Below, piece after piece: positions 3,416 through 57,449 of a stretch of 64,000 bases of DNA. The DNA is from Candidatus Gastranaerophilales bacterium (GTDB taxonomy: Bacteria; Cyanobacteriota; Vampirovibrionia; Gastranaerophilales; Gastranaerophilaceae): contig CALUYZ010000005.1 of the NCBI GenBank assembly GCA_944325175.1, positions 15,484 through 79,483 on the forward strand. Reading direction: 5' to 3'. The position numbers and the translations under genes were made by a program. Position 1 is the stretch's first letter. Each line of letters begins with the position of its first letter. The notes beneath the pieces were generated by a model, which made no database searches, was not told where the DNA came from, and saw only the letters and a program-made list of their open reading frames with translations.

Positions 3416-6400
3416 GTGAAATACAATTTTAACAACAGTTTTATTAAAGAACAAGCTAAACCCGGCAGCTGGCGCAGGGGTTATGAATGTTTTCAAAAAA
3501 ATTTAGTTAGCGATGTTACAATTAAAGATGCCGTTATTTCAGGCAAAGTAAAAGGCAATTTTAAAGATCACTATGATGTTTCGATAAAATTTAATAAAAC
3601 ATCCGCTAAACCTTCTTGTTCTTGCCCTCTTGATGAACCTTGGTGCAAGCATGTTGTTGCTTTGGGTTTATCTGCAATTAAAGAGCATCAGGTTGATGAA
3701 TTGATGTATGAAAAATATAATATTGAGCCAACAATAGTGGATGAAAATATTCCCATGACGGAAAATCCTAAAGGCGGCTATATTTTTCACTTTAACCCCA
3801 AAAGAAGGCAAAATTTCTTTTCAATTCTTGTAATGGACAGAAACACAAAAAGAGTTATAAGAGATTTAGAAGCAATTTTTAAAGCCGTTTTGGAAATGCA
3901 AAAAAACGACCCCGATTTTAAGCTGAACGAAGTACAAAAGCTCGAAGCGATGATGTTTTCAATGCTTTTAAAACAATCAAGGCTGGATAAAAAATCAGGT
4001 TGGTATGATGTTCAAATTAATAAATTTGATGACTTCTTTAAAATGCTCTCTAAAATGGAAGATGTAATAGATGCTAAAACACATAAGAAAATTTTATTTA
4101 CATCCGATGTTTGGAATTTGTGCTTGTCCGTTAATGTTTCTTATGTCGGAAATGTTTTATTGTCTTTATATTGGAAGCGCCCTGACGGGAATGAAATTTA
4201 TCCTTTCGAAGAAATCAGATATTTTTCAAGAGGTCTAAAATGGGGCAGATATAAAGATAGAATTTTCCAAACGGATGTAATGGTTTCTGTTCTTCCGCAA
4301 AACCTTATTAAGGCTTCTTTTACAGATATTAAAGATGCCGAGGGCGGTAAATTCATTTATGAAGAACTTCCTGAATTAAGAAAAGTCATGACAGTTGAAT
4401 TGTCGGAAGAAATGGAAAAACTTTCATTTGAAAAAAGAGACCCTAAATGTGTAGTTGAACTTGGCATTGATTATGATCAATCCCTAAAAGCATCTTTGGA
4501 ATTTGAATATGACGGAGTTAGGGTTCCTTATACAAAAAATCCGAAAACGCCCTATATTACAATTAAAGACCCTGAAAAAGATTTATTATATTGGGTTAAA
4601 AGAGATTCAAATTATGAGCAAAGAGCCTATCAAATGCTTCTTGCTTGCCGTTTTGCACCAATGCAAACTAACAATTTAGCCCTTGAAAAAGAAAATGCTA
4701 TTGATTTTTACAACTATTATATAAATCAAGCAGGCTCAAATTGGGAATTTATAGAAAAAGACGATATGTCCATGTATAAATTAACAAAAAAAGAGCTTAC
4801 CTTGTGCGCTGAAATTGATTTTGCATCAGATACAACAGATAAATTTGAAATTGAAATGTACGCAGAAGCAGAAGGCGAGCGCATTGAATTTGAAAAGGTT
4901 CAAGAATTAGTCTATGACGGGCAAAGATATTATCAATCCGTTGGCAAAGGGCAGAGTTTAATACCTGTAGATAACGTATTTACACTGTTAAAATCATTTA
5001 ATACATACGATGTTTACAAAAATGATGAAGATAAATATATCGTAAAAACATACCGTGCAGGTGTAGTTTCCGAAATGGAAAATATGAAGGTTAAAATGAA
5101 AATGTCCAGAAAATTTTCTAAATTCTGGAAAGAAATTTCTACATTTTCAAATATGGAAAATACGGCATTGCCAAAATCAACCGTTGCAAATCTTCGTGAA
5201 TATCAACAAAAAGGCTACAGTTGGTTATGGTTTTTGTATAAATACGGGCTTAATGGAATTTTAGCAGATGATATGGGTCTTGGTAAAACTCTTCAAACTT
5301 TAACCTTGTTACAAAAGGCAAAAGAAAAAGACGGTAAAGAGCCAACCCTTGTAATTTGCCCGACCTCAGTTGTTTTTAACTGGGAAAATGAAATTGAAAA
5401 ATTTGCCCCCAATCTAAAATTTTTAACTCTTTCAGGGTCTGAAAGAAAAGCAAACTTTAAAAATATTCCAAAATTTGATGTCATTATTACAAGCTATGCT
5501 CTTATCAGGCGTGATATTGAACAGCTAAAAAAATATGATTTCAGATACATTATTTTAGATGAATCTCAAAATATAAAAAATGCACAAAGTCAAACTTCAA
5601 AAGCGGTTAAAACCCTAAAAGCTAAGCACAAATTGGCACTGTCAGGCACCCCTATTGAAAATAGGCTTGAAGAATTATGGAGTGTATTTGATTTTCTTAT
5701 GCCCGGTTTCTTGTTTGATTCTAATGAATTTAATAACAGATACGTATATCCAATCGTAGAAAAAGAAGATAAACAAGTGGAAAGGCGCTTAAAATCGCAA
5801 ATTTTCCCATTTATTTTAAGACGTATGAAAAGGGATGTTGCAAAAGATTTGCCTGATAAAATTGAAGCCGTTGCATATTGCGAACTTACACCCGAGCAAA
5901 AAGACTTATATTTGCAAGTTCTTGATTCTACTAAAGAAGAATTGTTTAAATCAATCGAAACAGTTGGCTTGGAAAAATCCAGAATGTCTATTTTCTCTGC
6001 CCTTCTACGTTTGCGTCAAATCTGCTGTCATCCGAGATTGTACGACAAAGAAGGCATGTTAAATATTAATGAATCAGGTAAGTTTGAGCATTTGCAATCA
6101 ATGCTTGAGGAAATCATATCTGAAGGTCATAGAATTTTATTATTCAGCCAGTTTGTAGGCATGCTTGATATAATTAAAGTGTGGCTTGAAAATAAAGGTA
6201 TTAAGCATGAATACCTATCCGGTGCCACCAAAAACAGACAAGAGGTTGTAGAAAGGTTTAATTCCGACCCTACAATTCCTATCTTCCTTGTTTCCTTGAA
6301 AGCAGGCGGAACAGGCTTGAATTTAACAGGTGCCGATTATGTAATTCACTATGACCCATGGTGGAACCCTGCCGTTGAAGATCAGGCAACAGACAGGGCT

Positions 6401-49797: not shown

Positions 49798-50769
49798 CTA
49801 TTTTTTTACACAACGTACGAGATATAATTCTGATCGGGGACGCTTTCCTCGGTCGCCATTTACAAAAGCCTGATACCAAGCCATACCGGAATTGCCTGAT
49901 GATACGGTTGTGCTTGACCAGTATCTGCTTTTGCTTTCACTTAAATTAATTAATGGTGCATTTACAAATAAAGATGTCAGTTCATCTTTATCAGGTAGCC
50001 TTAAATTTTCTGCCATATTTTTGCACGCTGTTGGCGCATCGATTGTTTCTTTGTTTTCTGAATAGTGAGGCACTGTTGAAGCGTAATCTTTGTCATAAGG
50101 AACAGGTGCTACAACTACAGGGTTTTTATTGTAGAGTGCTGTCATAAACCCAATATCTTTACCTATTTCATTAGGTCCTTCTTTACCATTTAGGTCGTAT
50201 AAAAAATTTACACACATATTGTTTTGTGGATAGTGATTGATTGACACACTTGATGAACACATAGGATTATAGTAAACAGCGATAGATTCACCATTTACCG
50301 TTTCAAAAGCAGCAGCTTTAGTATCAACCACGCTTCCTTTTTCTCCGTCCACATGAAGCCCGTTTAATAATTGGCTATTTAACTCGCTCATTTTAGTTGG
50401 AAAACTAATTTCAGAAACTGCATCTAGTGTTGCAACTTTACTTGGAATACCGCAAGATGAAAGCTTATCAGGACCACAAACATTGTTTATTTTATAAACC
50501 TTTGATAATGCATCCAAAATAAAGCTTTCAGCTGCCGTATCTTCTGTTGCGGTTCCTTCTTCATTGGTTTCAAATGTTCCATATCCACCCAACGTATTCA
50601 TCTGCCCAATCGCTTGCGCCATTCTGGCATGAAGCGCTTTCCTCTGTGCATCCCATGCTTTTTCGTTAACATTTACAAGTAAACTAGGCAACGTAATTGC
50701 AGCCACAATGCCAATAATTGCCAAAGTAATTAAAACTTCAGCAAGCGTAAAGCCTCTTGTCTTTTTCAT
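49798..50769 (-). CDS. Prepilin-type N-terminal cleavage/methylation domain protein with DUF1566-like C-terminal domain (paralog P1)
   Basis: MKKTRG|FTLAEVLITLAIIGIVAAITLP (G-1, F+1, E+5). C-terminal RLPDKDEL.SLF....YWSST....AWYQ.F..G....VRCV pattern. Confidence 0.82.
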   Translation of the reverse strand: MKKTRGFTLAEVLITLAIIGIVAAITLPSLLVNVNEKAWDAQRKALHARMAQAIGQMNTLGGYGTFETNEEGTATEDTAAESFILDALSKVYKINNVCGPDKLSSCGIPSKVATLDAVSEISFPTKMSELNSQLLNGLHVDGEKGSVVDTKAAAFETVNGESIAVYYNPMCSSSVSINHYPQNNMCVNFLYDLNGKEGPNEIGKDIGFMTALYNKNPVVVAPVPYDKDYASTVPHYSENKETIDAPTACKNMAENLRLPDKDELTSLFVNAPLINLSESKSRYWSSTTVSSGNSGMAWYQAFVNGDRGKRPRSELYLVRCVKK

Positions 50770-50790
50770 ATCATTCTATCCTTTCAACTT

Positions 50791-50817
50791 TGCACCAATT
50801 TGAGCTAATTTGATGCA
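50791..50817. promoter_or_regulatory. Proximal 27-bp palindromic site upstream of P1
   Basis: TGCACCAA-N11-TTGATGCA. Confidence 0.6.
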
Positions 50818-50934
50818 AGGGGTTATATCCTTTATTGTTAGAGGGTTTTGTGGATTATAGAAATAAAAAATATTAAGGTTTATTGGTCTTGAATTAATAG
50901 TGAAACAATGATATATTGAGAAAAAGAAGTTAAA

Positions 50935-50961
50935 TGCACCAATATAGCTCATTTTGGTGCA
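50935..50961. promoter_or_regulatory. Distal 27-bp palindromic site upstream of P1
   Basis: TGCACCAA-N11-TTGGTGCA, with arms extendable to 11 bp. Confidence 0.6.
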
Positions 50962-51093
50962 TTTTTTGTGTATTTAAAAAATAGTGGGGTAATGGGGGTT
51001 AGATATAAAGGCTTTTTGAGATGAAGGGGTGAAGAAGTTGTTAAGAAATATGAGAAGTTTGCAATTTTTTATATTTTCCGGGTTTAAGAAGAT

Positions 51094-52734
51094 ATGAAAA
51101 TAAATGGTTTTAAAAATGATGTAAATTTTAAAGGTGCTACTATTAATATAAATGCATTATCAGATACTCATGGCAATTTAGAGCTTGCTGACAGAGGGTA
51201 TCAGACAATGATAAAGCATGAAAAAGATGTTTTCGAAAAGGAAGAAAAAGGGAAAGCTAATTTCTTGATAATTGGTGGTGATTGGTTTATATCAGGCGGG
51301 AAAACAGGATATTTAACAGACCCAAACAAGCCTTTGATGAAATTTCAAGGGGAAATGCTAAATAAATTTATTGGCAAAATTAAGGAAAAGTATCCAATGA
51401 CAAAAAGCATTTTTGTTCCTGGAAACCATGAAACAGATGGCGGAATTGAAATTTTTAGTCAAGCAATTAGGAATATTGATGCTGATGTGATTATAACAAA
51501 TATGGATTTTGAAAATTCTTTTCTTATGAAAGATGCCATAGACGAAGGAAGGGTAGTAGCCGAAAAAATAACGGTTGTTTCTGATGATAAGGACCCTGAA
51601 AAAAGCTATCCTGTATTAAATTTAGGAATCATGCCCGTAAACTTAGAATTTTATCTAAATGACCATACAGGCTTAGAATTAGTTGAAAATTGCAAAGTTC
51701 CCCAAAAATATGTAAGTTCAAATCAAACCCAAAAGACAAGAGCGCTTGTAAAAGCCAGAATTGAAGAATTTAAAGAAGAAAATCCAAACGGTATTGTTAT
51801 TTTAACTTGTCATACGGGTGTTAATTTAGCTGATAATCTTGCAAAAGAAACTCAAATTGACCTTGCTTTTGATGCGCATGAACATAAAGATGAAGTAAGA
51901 TATGTTAATGGAACTCCAATCGTGGCGCTTTCGCAAAATTTTCAAAAAATTGCTAATGCTAAAATAAAAATTGATGATGACGGAAAAAAAGAAATTACAA
52001 TTAAAGAACTAAGACCTACTGAGGGGCAATTTCAGCAAGGCGAGCTTGCTAAATTTTATAAAACACTTTTTGAAAAAGATGTGGCCCCGCAGTATTCAAT
52101 TACATCTGACGGAATAACTTCACTTTCTGTTGATAACATAAGAAACAGAAATAATCATTTAGCCAATTTTGTACTGGATTCAATTAGAGAAGAAATAAAA
52201 GAATACGACCCCGATGTTCAAATTTTTGCTCTAAATGCAAGCGCAATAAGATCCGGATTTAAAATTTCAAAAAATGAACCAAAAACTTCCCCTATAGAAA
52301 TTGCAAACTGTTTGGTTGGAATTAATCATAAAGTTGCAAATGTCGTTGTAAACAATGTTACAGGCAGGGAATTATCTTTTATGGTTTTAGATAATCTTTT
52401 ATTCAACAGGCTTGATACAGAGAAAAATCCTCTTATACATTATTCAGGCTTAAAAGTTGATAAAACAGGGCTTTTAGCTGCTTATGATAAAGGAATTATT
52501 GGTGAAGAACTTTGCAAATTTATAACTTTATCAGATACAGGCGAAACAATTAACCCTGATGAAAAATATAGAATTGCAAATGTTGAAAAATATTTTAATA
52601 AGTCCGTAAACGAAAAGATTAAGGAACTATACAGTGCATCTGAGCCTTTAAACATAAATATTCATGACCTGTTGAAAGAACATTTCAGAAAGCATCCAAA
52701 TATTCACTATACACCTGAAAACAGGCTATATTAG
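51094..52734 (+). CDS. Bifunctional metallophosphatase/5'-nucleotidase-like protein
   Basis: Calcineurin-like motifs SDTHGN, GGDWF and GNHE plus a C-terminal 5'-nucleotidase-like half. Confidence 0.65.
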   Translation: MKINGFKNDVNFKGATININALSDTHGNLELADRGYQTMIKHEKDVFEKEEKGKANFLIIGGDWFISGGKTGYLTDPNKPLMKFQGEMLNKFIGKIKEKYPMTKSIFVPGNHETDGGIEIFSQAIRNIDADVIITNMDFENSFLMKDAIDEGRVVAEKITVVSDDKDPEKSYPVLNLGIMPVNLEFYLNDHTGLELVENCKVPQKYVSSNQTQKTRALVKARIEEFKEENPNGIVILTCHTGVNLADNLAKETQIDLAFDAHEHKDEVRYVNGTPIVALSQNFQKIANAKIKIDDDGKKEITIKELRPTEGQFQQGELAKFYKTLFEKDVAPQYSITSDGITSLSVDNIRNRNNHLANFVLDSIREEIKEYDPDVQIFALNASAIRSGFKISKNEPKTSPIEIANCLVGINHKVANVVVNNVTGRELSFMVLDNLLFNRLDTEKNPLIHYSGLKVDKTGLLAAYDKGIIGEELCKFITLSDTGETINPDEKYRIANVEKYFNKSVNEKIKELYSASEPLNINIHDLLKEHFRKHPNIHYTPENRLY

Positions 52735-52739
52735 CAATA

Positions 52740-53564
52740 TTAATCTTCAAATTTTAAATTCAGATAATCTTTCAGTGCAAGTTTCCAATCTCTTAACATT
52801 TTGCCGTTATCCATAACAGAATATTTAGGTCGCACTGCGGGCCTTTTAAATTCTTCTGTTGTGCAAGGTTTAAGATTAACATCTAAATTGCTTAGTTCAA
52901 AAATTGTTTTTGCAAAATTATACCAAGTGGTGGGTTTTCCGCCGCCTGAGAGATGATATATTCCATAAGGCTTATTTAATAATGTCATAATTGCACCGGC
53001 TAAATCCATTGTCCAAGTAGGCGTTCCCCATTGATCGTCAACAACTTTTAATTCATCTTTATCTTTAAGAGAAAGCATAGTATCAACAAAGTTTTTGCCA
53101 TACATGCCATAAAGCCAGCTTGTTCTTGCTATATAGTATTTTTTGCAATGTTTTTTTACAAGTTCTTCCCCTTGTAGTTTGGTTTTGCCGTATACGTTTA
53201 TTGGATTTGTTGCATCTGTGGGCAGATATGGAGAATTCTTTTCTCCGTCAAAAACGTAATCTGTTGAAATGTAGATGATAGGAATATCAATTTTGCTTGC
53301 GCTAAGAGCAATATTTTCCGTTCCTATAACATTAATAAGCTCGGCTTTTTCTTTTTCTTCTTCAGCTTTATCAACATTTGTGTATGCTGCAAGATGAATA
53401 ATTAAATCAGGGTGAGCTTTTAGAACAAATTCCTCAACTTCTTCTTTTTTTGTAATATCTAAATTATCAATATCTGTTTCTATTAGAAAACAACCTAAAT
53501 CTTCCAGTGTTGGGCAAAGATCTTGCCCTAACATGCCTTTTGCGCCTGTTATTAAAACTTTCAT
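52740..53564 (-). CDS. rfbD: dTDP-4-dehydrorhamnose reductase
   Basis: MKVLITGAKGMLG and STDYVFDG...Y...K. RmlD-like throughout. Confidence 0.88.
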   Translation of the reverse strand: MKVLITGAKGMLGQDLCPTLEDLGCFLIETDIDNLDITKKEEVEEFVLKAHPDLIIHLAAYTNVDKAEEEKEKAELINVIGTENIALSASKIDIPIIYISTDYVFDGEKNSPYLPTDATNPINVYGKTKLQGEELVKKHCKKYYIARTSWLYGMYGKNFVDTMLSLKDKDELKVVDDQWGTPTWTMDLAGAIMTLLNKPYGIYHLSGGGKPTTWYNFAKTIFELSNLDVNLKPCTTEEFKRPAVRPKYSVMDNGKMLRDWKLALKDYLNLKFED

Positions 53565-54118
53565 AATAAATCCTCTTTATTTATTTCAGCAATAGTTTTT
53601 GCAATTTTATCTTTTTCTGATAATTTTGGTTCAAAATCAATATCCCAGTCTATGTTTATGTCTTTGTCGCACCATAAGATGCTCATCTCGTCTTTTGGGC
53701 TATAATCGCCTGAAACTTTATACATAACTTCAACAGTTTCAGAAAGCGCAACAAAACCATGAGCAAAACCTTTGGGAATAAAAAGCTGATGTTTGTTTTC
53801 CTCGGTTAATTTCTTTTTTGTCCATTTTAAAAATGTAGGTGAATTAACCCTTATATCAACCGCAACGTCTATTATTTCACCTTTTGTGCAGCGAACGAGT
53901 TTTGCTTGCGGGTTTGGATTTTTTTGATAATGTAAACCTCTTAAAACCCCAAAAGATGATTTTGAGTGGTTATCTTGAATAAAAATTTCATTAATTCCGA
54001 TATCTTTAAAATCTTTTTCTTTATAGGTTTCAAGAAAAAACCCTCTTGTATCGCCAAAAACCTTTGGTTTAACTAAAATAACGCCGTCTAATTCTGTTTT
54101 TTCAAATTCAAAAGGCAT
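53561..54118 (-). CDS. rfbC: dTDP-4-dehydrorhamnose 3,5-epimerase
   Basis: FGDTRGFFLETY, LRGLHYQ and GFAHGF motifs. 4-nt overlap with rfbD. Confidence 0.9.
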   Translation of the reverse strand: MPFEFEKTELDGVILVKPKVFGDTRGFFLETYKEKDFKDIGINEIFIQDNHSKSSFGVLRGLHYQKNPNPQAKLVRCTKGEIIDVAVDIRVNSPTFLKWTKKKLTEENKHQLFIPKGFAHGFVALSETVEVMYKVSGDYSPKDEMSILWCDKDINIDWDIDFEPKLSEKDKIAKTIAEINKEDLL

Positions 54119-54199
54119 TTAAAAACCCCCAAATAATTATTTATAAAAAGTATACACTTAAAATAAGTTATTTTCAAAATTTTATTGTAAACTTAATTT

Positions 54200-54982
54200 A
54201 TGACAATAAAACAAATTATAATTTCTTTAATTTTATTATTGGCAATTTACGGATTTTTAATAGAGCCTAATTTGATTATGGTTAAAAAATTAACCATAAA
54301 ATCTGATGATATTAAAAATTTTAAAATAGTCTTTGTTTCAGATTTTCACCTCTCAAAACAAGCAAAATTGAGGCTTAATAGGATTGTTAAAAAAGTTAAC
54401 GAACAAAAACCGGATGTCGTTATTTCAGGCGGTGATTATGTCATTATGCATAATGCAAAATTTTCAATGGATATGAACTATGCCGCAGAAAAATTAGCTG
54501 AAATTAATTCAAGGTATGGCATTTACTCTGTTATGGGCAACCATGACTATCATAAAGATAATAAATATATAAAAAATGCCCTAACAAACCATGGAATAAA
54601 AGTTTTAGAAAATGAAAACGCAAAAATTATTCACAACGACAAACCAATTTACATTGCAGGCATTTCTGACATGCAAACAACCTTTTATGACCTTGATAAG
54701 GCACTAAAAGGAACAAAACTTCCTATTATTTTGGTTTCTCACTCGCCTGACATAACCCCAAAAGCAAAAGGCAGAGTAAACCTTGTTTTATCGGGGCATA
54801 CCCATGGCGGGCAAGTAAGAATTCCCTTCATAGGTCCAATTATAGTGCCTTCTAAATATGGCGATAAATATGCATCAGGTTTTATTGATAACTTTACATA
54901 CACAACAAAAGGTCTCGGCACAAGCATTTTACACCTGAGATTTAATTGCGCACCTGAAATTTTAGTTGTTGAATATAAATAA
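54200..54982 (+). CDS. Membrane-anchored metallophosphoesterase (YkuE/YaeI-like)
   Basis: SDFHL, GGDY, GNHD and GHTHGGQ motifs. N-terminal TM helix. Confidence 0.8.
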   Translation: MTIKQIIISLILLLAIYGFLIEPNLIMVKKLTIKSDDIKNFKIVFVSDFHLSKQAKLRLNRIVKKVNEQKPDVVISGGDYVIMHNAKFSMDMNYAAEKLAEINSRYGIYSVMGNHDYHKDNKYIKNALTNHGIKVLENENAKIIHNDKPIYIAGISDMQTTFYDLDKALKGTKLPIILVSHSPDITPKAKGRVNLVLSGHTHGGQVRIPFIGPIIVPSKYGDKYASGFIDNFTYTTKGLGTSILHLRFNCAPEILVVEYK

Positions 54983-55146
54983 TCTGAATTAATTATCCTT
55001 TAACCTAAGCTATATATTCTATAATCTCAATTAATTTACACTGTAATCATTTTTATGGAATAAAAAAGCGTTGCTTTATATAACAACGCCTGATTGTGAT
55101 AAATTATGCATAATATAAAAATATTTTTTCTTCTGTAATATCAATT

Positions 55147-56118
55147 TTATTTCTCAACACAACGTACATAATGCGTATCTGAACGTTTGCCACGGGAAAG
55201 ATGCCCAACATTGAAGTTTTGGTACCATGCCAAACCGGACGACCCAAGTGAAATTACAGAACCTGACCAATAGCCACTTATACTTTTATTTAGTTCAATA
55301 AGTGGGGAGTTAATAAAAAGCGATGCCAGTTCATCTTTATCAGGAAGTCTTAAATCTTCTGACATAGTTTTGCAAACAGCTTGTGCATCAACCGCCTCTG
55401 TTTCTGTTGAATATTGTTGCACAGTCGATTTATAATCAGTACTGTAGGGAATAGGTGCCACAACTATAGGGCTCTTATTATTAAAAGCTGTTATGAAACC
55501 AATATCTTTTCCTACTTGATTAGGACCTTCGCTACCATTTAAGTCATAAACAAAATTAACACACATTCTGTTTTTGCTGTAGTGATCAAAGGTTTTATCA
55601 GAGCTGCATAGTGGATTATAAAAAACTGCTATTGATTCCCCATTTACTGTTTCAAAAGCAGCCGCTTTTGTATCAGCAACATCACCTTCTTCGCCTTCAT
55701 AACGTTGTCCGTTTAACAATTTATCATTCAGTTCACTCATCTTTGTCGGAAAAGTAAGCTCAGATGTTCCGTTTAAAGTTGTAATTTTACTTGGAATACC
55801 GCAAGATGAAAGTTTATCGGGTCCGCAAACATTGTTAATCTTATAAACCTTTGACAATGCATCTAAAATAAAACTCTCAGCTGCCGTATCAACCGTTGCG
55901 GTTCCTTCTTCATTGGTTTCAAATGTTCCATATCCACCTAATGTATTCATCTGCCCTATTGCTTGAGCTAATCTTGCATGAAGAGCTTTTTTCTGTGCAT
56001 CCCATGCTTTTTCGTTAACATTTACAAGTAAACTAGGCAAAGTAATTGCTGCTACAATACCAATAATTGCTAACGTAATCAAAATTTCAGCTAAAGTAAA
56101 CCCTGTTTTCTTTTTCAT
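55147..56118 (-). CDS. Prepilin-type/DUF1566-like protein (paralog P2)
   Basis: MKKKTG|FTLAEILITLAIIGIVAAITLP. The first ~110 aa are near-identical to P1/P3 and the C-terminus has diverged. Start moved to the ATG after AAAGG; the ORF extends to 56178. Confidence 0.8.
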   Translation of the reverse strand: MKKKTGFTLAEILITLAIIGIVAAITLPSLLVNVNEKAWDAQKKALHARLAQAIGQMNTLGGYGTFETNEEGTATVDTAAESFILDALSKVYKINNVCGPDKLSSCGIPSKITTLNGTSELTFPTKMSELNDKLLNGQRYEGEEGDVADTKAAAFETVNGESIAVFYNPLCSSDKTFDHYSKNRMCVNFVYDLNGSEGPNQVGKDIGFITAFNNKSPIVVAPIPYSTDYKSTVQQYSTETEAVDAQAVCKTMSEDLRLPDKDELASLFINSPLIELNKSISGYWSGSVISLGSSGLAWYQNFNVGHLSRGKRSDTHYVRCVEK

Positions 56119-56282
56119 CAAAATTACCTTTCTTTTATCAGCAAATTTAAAAAAATGTATAATGAAGCAATACTTCACATATAGTTATATTATCATCTTT
56201 TCACCTTGGCTTCAATGTATGAATTATAAATTATTATTTTAGCTTTTTGTACCACTATTACGGAATTATATTGCAACAAAAA

Positions 56283-56309
56283 TGCACCAAAATGAGCTAT
56301 CTTGGTGCA
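56283..56309. promoter_or_regulatory. Distal 27-bp palindromic site upstream of P3
   Basis: TGCACCAA-aatgagctatc-TTGGTGCA. Confidence 0.6.
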
Positions 56310-56426
56310 TTTAACTTCTTTTTCTCAATATATCATTGTTTCACTATTAATTCAAGACCAATAAACCTTAATATTTTTTATTTCTATAATCCACAAAACC
56401 CTCTAACAATAAAGGATATAACCCCT

Positions 56427-56453
56427 TGCATCAAATTAGCTCAAATTGGTGCA
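56427..56453. promoter_or_regulatory. Proximal 27-bp palindromic site in the P3 leader
   Basis: TGCATCAA-attagctcaaa-TTGGTGCA. The asymmetric core TAGCTC is the reverse complement of the distal-site core GAGCTA. Confidence 0.6.
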
Positions 56454-56474
56454 AAGTTGAAAGGATAGAATGAT

Positions 56475-57449
56475 ATGAAAAAGTTTAAAGGCTTTACGCT
56501 TGCTGAAGTATTAATTACTTTAGCTATTATTGGCATTGTGGCTGCAATTACGTTGCCTAGTTTGCTTGTAAATGTTAACGAAAAGGCATGGGATGCACAG
56601 AGGAAAGCACTTCATGCAAGAATGGCGCAAGCTATAGGGCAGATGAATACGTTGGGTGGATATGGAACATTTGAAACCAATGAAGAAGGAACCGCAACGG
56701 TTGATACGGCAGCTGAAAGCTTTATTTTGGATGCATTGTCAAAAGTTTATAAGATAAACAATGTCTGTGGTCCTGATAAGCTTTCATCTTGCGGTATTCC
56801 AAGTAAAGTTGCAACGTTGAACGGGGTATCAGAAATTAATTTTCCGACAAAGATGAGCGAGCTGAATTCATTTCTTTTGAATGGATTACACAAGATAAAT
56901 GAAGATGGAAATATTGTTGATACAAAGGCTGCTGCATTTGAAACGGTTAATGGTGAATCGATTGCGGTTTTTTACAATCCGCTTTGTGGCTCGGATAGCT
57001 CTGCAAGTCATTATGTTCAAAACAAAATGTGTGTAAATTTTATCTACGACCTAAATGGAAGTGAAGGTCCTAATGAAGTGGGCAAAGATGTCGGATTTAT
57101 GACTGCATTGTATAATAAAAATTCATCTGTTGTTGCGCCTTTTCCGTATAAGGTTAATTATAAAACAAAGGCAGTGTCATACTCTGATAGTTTAGATACA
57201 AAAGATGCATCAGAAATTTGTAAACTTCAAAATGAAGGGCTTAGATTGCCAAACAGAGATGAATTGGCATCATTATTTATTAATAGCAGGCTTATTAACA
57301 TTGTCGGGGACGGTTCAGGCGGGTATTGGTCGGGCTCAATTATTTCGGGTGGTACTAACGGTTTAGCATGGCATCAATATTTTAATGACGGAATTAGAGA
57401 AACGAGTTTACGTTCTACGGAAAGATATATAAGATGTCTTTATAAATAG
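56475..57449 (+). CDS. Prepilin-type/DUF1566-like protein (paralog P3)
   Basis: MKKFKG|FTLAEVLITLAIIGIVAAITLP. C-terminal RLPNRDELASLF...YWSGS...AWHQ.F..G...IRCL. Confidence 0.82.
   Translation: MKKFKGFTLAEVLITLAIIGIVAAITLPSLLVNVNEKAWDAQRKALHARMAQAIGQMNTLGGYGTFETNEEGTATVDTAAESFILDALSKVYKINNVCGPDKLSSCGIPSKVATLNGVSEINFPTKMSELNSFLLNGLHKINEDGNIVDTKAAAFETVNGESIAVFYNPLCGSDSSASHYVQNKMCVNFIYDLNGSEGPNEVGKDVGFMTALYNKNSSVVAPFPYKVNYKTKAVSYSDSLDTKDASEICKLQNEGLRLPNRDELASLFINSRLINIVGDGSGGYWSGSIISGGTNGLAWHQYFNDGIRETSLRSTERYIRCLYK

Follow-up and report, generated by a model that had tools for sequence, protein, structure and literature searches.

The pilin-like genes and their upstream modules

We analysed a 64,000-nucleotide (nt) stretch of DNA from a Candidatus Gastranaerophilales bacterium, hereafter called the window; all coordinates are window positions unless a locus label (L and a number) is given. 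Its G+C content is 32%. The window encodes three pilin-like proteins, P1, P2 and P3, each with a prepilin-type N-terminal methylation motif (N_methyl) and an Lcl_C/DUF1566 C-terminus. Upstream of P3, and again upstream of P1, lies a module that is a candidate promoter switch. In each module, two 27-base pair (bp) imperfect inverted repeats, hereafter called the distal (D) and proximal (P) sites, bracket a 117-bp segment. The features are as follows.

49798-50769, minus strand: P1, N_methyl and Lcl_C pilin-like protein of 323 amino acids (Pfam)
50791-50817: P site of the P1 module
50818-50934: segment of the P1 module, 117 bp, identical to the P3 segment
50935-50961: D site of the P1 module, with the same centre as in the P3 module and one substitution in a flanking dinucleotide
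55147-56118, minus strand: P2, divergent N_methyl and Lcl_C pilin-like paralog (Pfam), without a proximal site
56283-56309: D site of the P3 module, 27 bp, TGCACCAAAATGAGCTATCTTGGTGCA, with arms TGCACCAA and TTGGTGCA, flanking dinucleotides AA and TC, and the 7-nt centre TGAGCTA (motif enrichment and centre covariation with P)
56310-56426: candidate invertible segment of the P3 module, 117 bp, between D and P
56427-56453: P site of the P3 module, 27 bp, TGCATCAAATTAGCTCAAATTGGTGCA, with inner arm TGCATCAA (one mismatch), outer arm TTGGTGCA and centre TAGCTCA
56454-56474, plus strand: leader from the P site to the P3 start, containing the Shine-Dalgarno-like AAGTTGAAAGGATAG and conserved throughout the canonical modules
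56475-57449, plus strand: P3, N_methyl and Lcl_C pilin-like protein of 324 amino acids (Pfam), the gene that the module would switch
50377-50966 and 56278-56867: left arm and partner of an inverted duplication (repeat I1), 590 nt, 94% identity

The repeats and the segment of the P3 module lie exactly where the original prediction, which was made from the letters alone, had placed them. The two 27-mers match at 22 of 27 positions as inverted repeats and at 18 of 27 as direct repeats, and the centre of the P site is the reverse complement of that of the D site. The palindrome of the D site is lengthened by AAA/TTT to 56280-56312, the two sites are 144 bp apart from centre to centre, and the P site ends 21 nt ahead of the P3 start codon. 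A flip of the 117-bp segment would carry the inner arms of both sites along with it. The predicted duplicate at 50791-50961 is likewise present, in the opposite orientation, with one substitution in 174 nt. The pattern TGCAYCAA-N9-13-TTGRTGCA has four matches in the window, as compared to none in 100 dinucleotide-preserving shuffles. The module is a real feature and not a product of chance.

The module forms one end of the inverted duplication, whose boundary lies 5 bp past the distal site, and the duplication also takes in the first 393 nt of P1 and P3. The 5.3-kb block between the two inverted modules (50967-56277) is flanked by two sites with the centre TGAGCTA. It contains genes for a Metallophos protein of 546 amino acids, RmlD, a dTDP-sugar epimerase and a Metallophos protein of 260 amino acids, in addition to P2. 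The D sites of the two modules are mutually inverted, and the whole block could in principle flip, either by the same recombinase or by homologous recombination. In a sister species, the same four-gene block directly adjoins the xer gene described below.

Conserved arms and pair-specific centres

A search for further sites, which the original prediction had suggested, was made in paralogous loci fetched from several assemblies. It gave 20 unique modules with the same layout, all upstream of N_methyl and Lcl_C genes, in which inverted repeats flank a short intergenic segment beside the gene. The segment is 115-117 nt long and its middle is poorly conserved. In canonical modules, the P site lies at -48 to -52 from the start codon.

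Could such a module be a miniature mobile element, similar to a miniature inverted-repeat transposable element or a REPIN, that was inserted upstream of pilin genes by chance? Its length of about 171 bp, its 27-bp terminal inverted repeats and its many copies would suit such an element. However, the distance to the start codon of a single gene family is constant, the module was duplicated together with the 5′ end of the gene, it carries a conserved promoter, and no copy was found elsewhere in the 64-kb window. We therefore regard chance insertion as highly improbable.

The sites have the general form of arms TGCACCAA and TTGGTGCA around an asymmetric 7-nt centre, TG-NNNN-A. The arms are near-invariant among the 20 unique modules, with variation only at the fifth base, while the centres fall into eight distinct sequences: TGAGCTA, TGAGCAA, TGAGTAA, TGAGTGA, TGAATGA, TGAACGA, TGTTTTA and TGTTTAA. 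In 19 of the 20 modules, reverse-complementing the proximal centre gives exactly the distal centre. We tested this covariation formally with the 17 distinct D/P pairs. Of the 68 cells at D positions 13-16, 67 hold a Watson-Crick pair with the P partner. Double changes number 31, and G-U pairs are absent. On the outer side of the centre, D positions 9-10 are complementary in none of the 17 pairs, and the two positions on the inner side are usually non-complementary. The observed covariation score was reached by none of 500 shuffles, and when the partner columns were slid, pairing amounted to 28-38% as compared to 85% in the true register. The same behavior recurs in the sister species, where the centre of one orthologous module next to xer is ATGTTCA in two strains (L074, L097) and ATATTCA in two others (L078, L081), with the change present in both D and P. 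The centres are kept matched while their neighbours are mismatched, and therefore ongoing selection appears to maintain their pairwise identity.

Inverted arms around an asymmetric centre that is matched between partners, with non-identical flanks, are the design of tyrosine-recombinase core sites. Conserved arms with a short partner-matched centre form the signature of a recombinase core site, unlike an RNA stem or an operator, and we assign the 27-bp sites to the tyrosine-recombinase type on the basis of their sequence. By analogy, the arms would bind the protein and the centre would be the overlap region of strand exchange. A serine invertase of the Hin/Gin type does not suit these sites, as the covarying centre is 7 nt long and not 2. 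Consistently, Pfam searches of the window gave no Resolvase-family match, and the gene listings of this species' fetched loci show none.

The original prediction had offered two alternatives, hairpins with kissing loops and paired operators, and the covariation bears on both. According to the first, two hairpins in one transcript would form kissing loops or a long-range duplex that controls the translation or stability of the pilin mRNA. The loops are indeed complementary and covarying, and D pairs with P in the sense strand's minimum-free-energy fold (z = -2.9). However, there is no G-U pair among the 31 double changes, and the arms are invariant in sequence rather than merely conserved in pairing. 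The mismatches beside the centre are conserved as well, without any complementarity on its outer side, and variants of the P arm yield A-G, C-A or A-A mismatches. Moreover, the only conserved promoter sits between the two sites and reads the opposite strand, so that D and P are not co-transcribed from it. Rfam gave no match in this region and only a tRNA in the whole window. Together with the DNA inversion that is directly observed at L089 (see below), these findings make RNA-level control very unlikely, and a structured cis-regulatory RNA was rejected as a class. According to the second alternative, the sites are paired operators for a dimeric, DNA-looping repressor, consistent with palindromic, invariant arms at a centre-to-centre distance of 144 bp. 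A repressor gives no reason for 7-nt centres that are module-specific and reverse complementary, and it leaves the exact inversion unexplained. We thus give the operator explanation hardly any weight.

Two modules may represent disabled switches. In L035 (9810-9835), the outer arm of one distal site lacks 1 nt (TGCAC-AA), and in L065 (12507-12533 and 12651-12677), the two centres are one base apart (TGTTTTA and TGTTTAA), while the orthologous pair in L072 is matched.

A conserved, predicted promoter points away from the gene

The following elements were predicted within the modules of the window.

56355..56327, minus strand: sigma-70-type promoter with an extended -10 element, P3 module, facing D and away from P3 (-35 TTGAAT at 56355-56350, 17-nt spacer, TG at 56335-56334, -10 TATATT at 56332-56327; consensus scan and conservation)
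50889..50917, plus strand: promoter of the P1 module, TTGAAT-17-TATATT with TG, facing D and away from P1
56270..56322, minus strand: predicted end of the OFF-state transcript, consisting of the D hairpin (-16.6 kcal/mol) followed by UUUUUG (z = -3.7)

The promoter, TTGAAT or TTGAAC-17-TGnTATATT, occurs in 15 of 15 unique module variants, with TATATT in 14 and TATAGT in one. In the module alignment, it is the sole conserved block inside the segment, within about 50 conserved nt beside the distal site, and the pilin gene itself lacks a conserved promoter. Inversion would thus reverse a predicted promoter that the segment carries. The promoter faces D in 19 of the 20 unique modules and faces the gene in the remaining one, L089. 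The original prediction had instead named the TATAAT at 56385-56390 as a promoter facing P3. This hexamer is present inside the P3 segment, but is not conserved; paralogs have TTTAAT, GAGTGG and others in its place. Since the conserved promoter points away from the gene, the window copies are read from their sequence as being in the OFF state for both P3 and P1, and not ON for P3 as had been proposed.

What would become of the outward transcript? The D hairpins in the OFF direction have folding energies of -13.6 to -16.6 kcal/mol across the modules and are followed by U5-6, and all modules have an A-run ahead of D on the gene-sense strand. The D site is thus probably terminator-like in the OFF direction. 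When the segment is flipped in silico, transcription from the promoter would pass the P-site hairpin (-11 kcal/mol, without a U-run) before it reaches the AAGTTGAAAGGATAG leader and the start codon. We infer promoter and terminator activity from these consensus and fold predictions. Stop codons lie close to the site, and the N-terminal extension peptides specific to the ON state are short.

Natural inversion at a paralogous locus

The flipped module belongs to a paralogous gene of 318 amino acids, 71% identical to P3, at which we compared three samples. L088 (SAMEA6814608) and L090 (BRZ_CH) have the OFF orientation. In L089 (SAMEA6814603), the 117-nt segment and both inner arms are exactly reverse-complemented relative to the other two. 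An in-silico inversion of L088 between D position 18 and P position 10 yields the L089 sequence without a single mismatch over the stretch from D to 60 nt past P, and another 1017 nt downstream are identical between L088 and L089. In a 291-nt comparison of the flipped L088 with L089, all six differences lie more than 20 nt upstream of D. Because the outer dinucleotides AA and TC stay in place while a G/T polymorphism in the inner arm switches side, the crossover is mapped to a 12-nt interval, TGTTTAAGTTTG, which includes the 7-nt centre. The L089 orientation turns the promoter, TTGAAC-17-TGcTATATT, toward the gene. Both orientations therefore occur in nature at this locus, with breakpoints in the repeats. 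A shufflon is a poor description of this inversion, as the inverted segment is non-coding and the ON and OFF alleles do not differ in the coding sequence downstream.

One serious rival remains, in which the inversion would be a rare evolutionary event and not a programmed one. The module would then be static, a fixed divergent promoter with a terminator, its repeats a by-product, and L089 a rare rearrangement by template switching or short-repeat recombination. That there is a single flipped instance is what such a history would leave, as is the one orientation shown by all other assemblies and by the protein calls that extend upstream. Nevertheless, L089 shows a conservative and exact inversion whose breakpoints map to the 12-nt interval around the 7-nt centre, and repeated compensatory changes match the D and P centres while their neighbours stay mismatched. 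A fixed orientation would furthermore leave the gene without a conserved promoter. We therefore consider the static module improbable, though less so than the RNA, operator or mobile-element explanations.

The predicted ON-state junction had no match in the Joint Genome Institute (JGI) metagenomes, which is uninformative, as the organism is absent from that collection; the 21 matches to the proximal junction in the same metagenomes are all chance matches in unrelated DNA. Contigs that end in or near the sites (L002, L039, L040, L041, L073) were considered as assembly-graph bubbles, and these ends are explained by repeats of at least 80 nt that the paralogs have in common.

A different inversion is seen in the sister species, where a leader block of 250-280 nt between the proximal site and a pilin-like gene of about 250 amino acids is inverted among strains (L097 at about 3625-3902 as compared to L074 at about 5093-5340 and L078 at about 5088-5363, with 85-87% identity on the opposite strand). 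A different inverted repeat, about CCTTTTAAAATCATCTGT, apparently delimits the block. This may be a second inversion affecting that leader, unrelated to the promoter switch.

A candidate recombinase and dif-like sites

Which enzyme would catalyse the inversion? Pfam searches of all 57 open reading frames of at least 120 amino acids found no recombinase in the window, as had been predicted. The suggested search for tyrosine and serine invertases yielded one Xer-like tyrosine recombinase of 289 amino acids (L072 7602-8471), on contig NODE_345 of the BRZ_DN assembly that also holds the window contig; no other Phage_integrase-family gene is listed for this species' fetched loci. Its stop codon is 13 nt from the D site of a module, and the coverage of its contig, 33x, is close to the 31x of the window contig. 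The protein scores 302.5 against the NCBIfam tyrosine recombinase subfamily (cut-off, 279) and stays below the equivalog cut-offs of XerD (312.5, cut-off 329.6) and XerC (289.5, cut-off 335.15). The best solved structure is XerD, 1a0p (E = 9.5e-51). In the sister species, the recombinase is 92% identical, and each of the 13 strains examined has a site 4 nt past the stop, both with and without a pilin cassette behind it. This Xer-like tyrosine recombinase, encoded outside the window, is the best candidate for the catalyst, as judged from its sequence and position; its strong conservation would fit a purely housekeeping role equally well.

The site beside xer in the sister species, ATGCCCCATAA|TGTTCA|TTATGTTGCAT, matches Escherichia coli dif at 19 of 28 positions, including 9 of 11 in the XerD arm; for ATGCACCATAA|TGAATA|TTATGGTGCAT, a variant site found in the window species, the count is 18 of 28 (dif sequences from PMC3025954). 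Variant sites match dif at 8-9 of 11 positions in the XerD arm. Of 127,946 28-mers of the window, only two reach 19 matches. The resemblance is confined to the variant sites and the sister-species site. The canonical module sites are read as 11-7-11, and instead of a single 28-bp 11-6-11 site per chromosome there are multiple copies in inverted pairs, mostly with a 7-nt centre.

Among the sister-species strains, those without the cassette (L075-L077, L079, L080, L095, L096, L098, L099) keep a single site 4 nt past the xer stop. Its right half is of the D-inner type, TTATGTTGCA, in L077, L080 and L096; in L075, L076, L079, L095, L098 and L099 it is the reverse complement of the P inner arm as after an inversion, ATTTGTTGTA or ATTTGTTGCA. 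The flank after the site is equal in all of these strains, and no single inversion or deletion explains the two types of right half. In a more distant genus (L082-L085, about 4875-4960), two to three tandem copies of a 32-nt unit, about AAAACTCCCTCGAAAAAATGTAAAATTTCTC, follow xer, and L084 has Cas1, Cas2 and an HNH-domain protein nearby.

A model for promoter inversion

On the basis of the sites and their covariation, the conservation and orientation of the promoter, and the exact natural inversion at one paralogous locus, we conclude with high confidence that the modules, as a family, are site-specific invertible promoters (invertons) that switch the adjacent pilin-like gene ON and OFF. For the two window copies taken individually, where we infer inversion by homology, our confidence is somewhat lower. 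At least 18 paralogous genes in the sampled DNA have such a switch. The original prediction of an invertible promoter element with its recombinase encoded elsewhere was thus essentially right, as the comparison of L088 and L090 with L089 and the covariation of the centres attest, while its promoter assignment and its ON/OFF reading had to be corrected. We propose that the switch would operate as follows.

Sites: Two inverted binding arms of about 8-11 bp each would surround a 7-bp crossover region. The crossover region would have to match between partner sites, and its asymmetry would fix their relative orientation.

OFF state: The internal extended -10 promoter would fire away from the gene into D, where the hairpin and the U-run probably terminate transcription.

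ON state: Recombination in the 7-bp centres would invert the 117-bp segment and the two inner arms. The promoter would then face the gene, and transcription would continue past the P-site hairpin, which lacks a U-run, to the AAGTTGAAAGGA leader and the coding sequence. Differing centres in different modules should limit recombination between loci.

Several points weigh against this model. Only one flipped instance is present among about 20 unique modules. Neither copy in the window is flipped; the modules of the window (L001) and the near-identical L042 and L043 are all OFF, as are the gene calls that run upstream into the module (P0002, P0049, P0068, P0070, P0100). The orientations were read from assemblies, and the promoter and terminator calls are predictions from consensus and folding. 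One centre can be shared by more than one module in a genome (TGAGCTA by both window modules, TGAGCAA twice in L035), and insulation between loci is therefore incomplete. The recombinase is absent from the window, and in the more distant genus, where it is 74% identical, no such site follows the gene. Because the Xer-like gene is highly conserved and lacks an adjoining site in that genus, it may be only a housekeeping dimer resolvase next to which the site lies by coincidence.

Beyond the inverton conclusion, we tentatively suggest a bolder possibility, which we hold to be less probable than not: a housekeeping and probably single Xer was co-opted for many independent promoter invertons with dif-derived 11-6/7-11 sites, whose centres were diversified pairwise into natural heterospecific sites. 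One enzyme would then flip each pilin promoter independently without scrambling the chromosome, and the site adjoining xer might double as the chromosomal dif.

Other features of the pilin-like loci

The P3 family is very large: a protein search gave 4584 matches, and the same few long contigs hold more than 100 paralogs with 55-75% identity. The window is essentially identical to the contig BRZ_DN NODE_552 of a human-gut-type assembly in the European Nucleotide Archive, and its nearest named relatives are metagenome-assembled genomes (MAGs) of Gastranaerophilales/Melainabacteria. P3 peptides found only distant relatives, of at most 44% identity, in GTDB genomes, and no comparable inverted-repeat architecture was found upstream in the three closest of these (L003-L005).

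P2 starts at the ATG at 56118, as had been proposed, and not at the GTG at 56178 of the mechanical list of reading frames. We compared three upstream regions of P2-type genes (window 56119-56282, L035 7947-8077, L069 8839-8967). These genes, whose products begin with MKKKTGFTLAE, have a long leader with a conserved promoter-like element of their own, TTGAAG-17-TGaTAATAT. In the window it is the following feature.

56215-56210 and 56192-56187, minus strand: promoter-like element of P2, -35 TTGAAG and -10 TAATAT, assigned from conservation in P2-type genes

This element scored below the threshold of the consensus promoter scan. The presence of a promoter-like element in P2-type genes, together with the hairpin and U-run formed by the D site in the outward direction, makes doubtful the proposal that a flip would toggle between P3 and P2. 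Beside the shared distal site, upstream of P2, the window also has a degenerate relic of a proximal-site outer arm and leader, AGTGGTACAAAAAGCTAAAA.

The same species encodes a prepilin peptidase (Peptidase_A24; L092 16727-17716) and a secretin (T2SS-T3SS_pil_N and Secretin; L040 10147-10981), and therefore has plausible machinery for the processing and export of the pilin-like proteins. L072 (16133-18638) carries the signature of a diversity-generating retroelement, a bAvd accessory protein with an RVT_1 reverse transcriptase. It adjoins a protein of 206 amino acids with a faint N_methyl match, less than 2 kb from more pilin-like genes, and may be a second diversification mechanism acting on pilin-like proteins.

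In tandem pilin arrays, distal sites are preceded, at a distance of about 30-50 nt, by a conserved GC-rich hairpin, GTTGGGCTGAAAGCCCAAC (L035 6859-6877, 9755-9773 and 11142-11160; also L039-L041, L065-L068 and L088-L094). It is also present in a distant Gastranaerophilales MAG (L005 2981-2999) and absent from the window. The hairpin is probably the terminator of the preceding gene.

Comparison with known systems

Invertible promoters are already well known from fimS, the Bacteroides capsule loci and mpl of Mycoplasma penetrans. What is new here is the lineage, the pilin-like family, the dif-like sites with pair-specific centres and the predicted orientation-dependent terminator. Among the papers searched, we found none that links Gastranaerophilales or Melainabacteria to promoter inversion or phase variation, and the only inverton mentioned was one hsdS locus. 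To our knowledge, gut Gastranaerophilales are uncultured, non-photosynthetic relatives of cyanobacteria whose interaction with the host is almost unknown.

The mpl element spans 135 bp with 12-bp inverted repeats, and we know of no report of pair-specific crossover centres or dif-like 11-6/7-11 sites in mpl. Most of the 38 mpl (P35) lipoprotein genes carry an invertible promoter, for whose inversion Xer-like recombinases have been named as candidates (PMC2268961, citing Horino 2003). They form a multigene family of surface proteins dispersed on the chromosome, and most of them turn ON and OFF independently of each other through inversion of the adjacent promoter (PMC2268961); the pilin-like family would resemble mpl in these respects. 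The two differ in phylum and in product, N_methyl and Lcl_C pilin-like proteins as compared to lipoproteins, and there is no sequence homology between them.

In E. coli, fimS is one locus of 314 bp, with inverted repeats of 9 bp and its recombinase genes next to it, while Mpi of Bacteroides fragilis is a serine recombinase that acts on a common inverted-repeat consensus. With fimS, which is flipped by FimB and FimE, and with the Bacteroides invertons, the modules share a short promoter segment between inverted repeats, which a recombinase would flip to phase-vary a surface structure. In Bacteroides, one recombinase acts globally on many dispersed loci (PMC2268961). In contrast to these systems, many loci here combine conserved arms with diversified 7-bp centres, and most of them have no adjacent recombinase.

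Between lox sites, identity of the spacer strongly favours recombination, and differing spacers are largely incompatible (PMC1479339). The module sites resemble loxP in having inverted arms around an asymmetric spacer, and their pairwise-matched centres fit the lox spacer rules. By this analogy, modules with different centres would be incompatible with one another. Unlike the module sites, loxP is 13-8-13 and comes from phage P1, and its heterospecific spacers are engineered, whereas those of the modules are natural.

The likeness to Xer/dif lies in the Xer-like sequence of the candidate, in the variant 11-6-11 sites with CATAA...TTATG inner arms, and in the site that abuts xer. Palindromic arms are also found in the single-recombinase system XerH/difH (PMC3325230), and XerS/difSL is another single-Xer system. 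Unlike dif, which is one site per chromosome and serves resolution rather than inversion, the module sites occur as many inverted pairs, and in most of them the centre is 7 bp long and the inner arms are AAAA/TCTT.

In the R64 shufflon, the tyrosine recombinase Rci acts on inverted sfx sites with a 7-bp spacer and diversifies the type IV pilus adhesin PilV. There, coding C-terminal segments are rearranged through one common spacer, whereas here a promoter would flip beside an intact coding sequence, with spacers that differ between modules.

Many pilin-like surface proteins, each with its own ON/OFF switch, could provide antigenic or adhesive variation comparable to that of Bacteroides or the mycoplasmas. 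The conserved arms offer a simple motif for finding and scoring such switches in metagenomic reads. The system may also show how a dimer-resolution recombinase is recruited into gene regulation. Its invariant arms and pair-specific 7-bp centres resemble a natural version of the heterospecific lox sites with which engineers direct several independent events by one enzyme.

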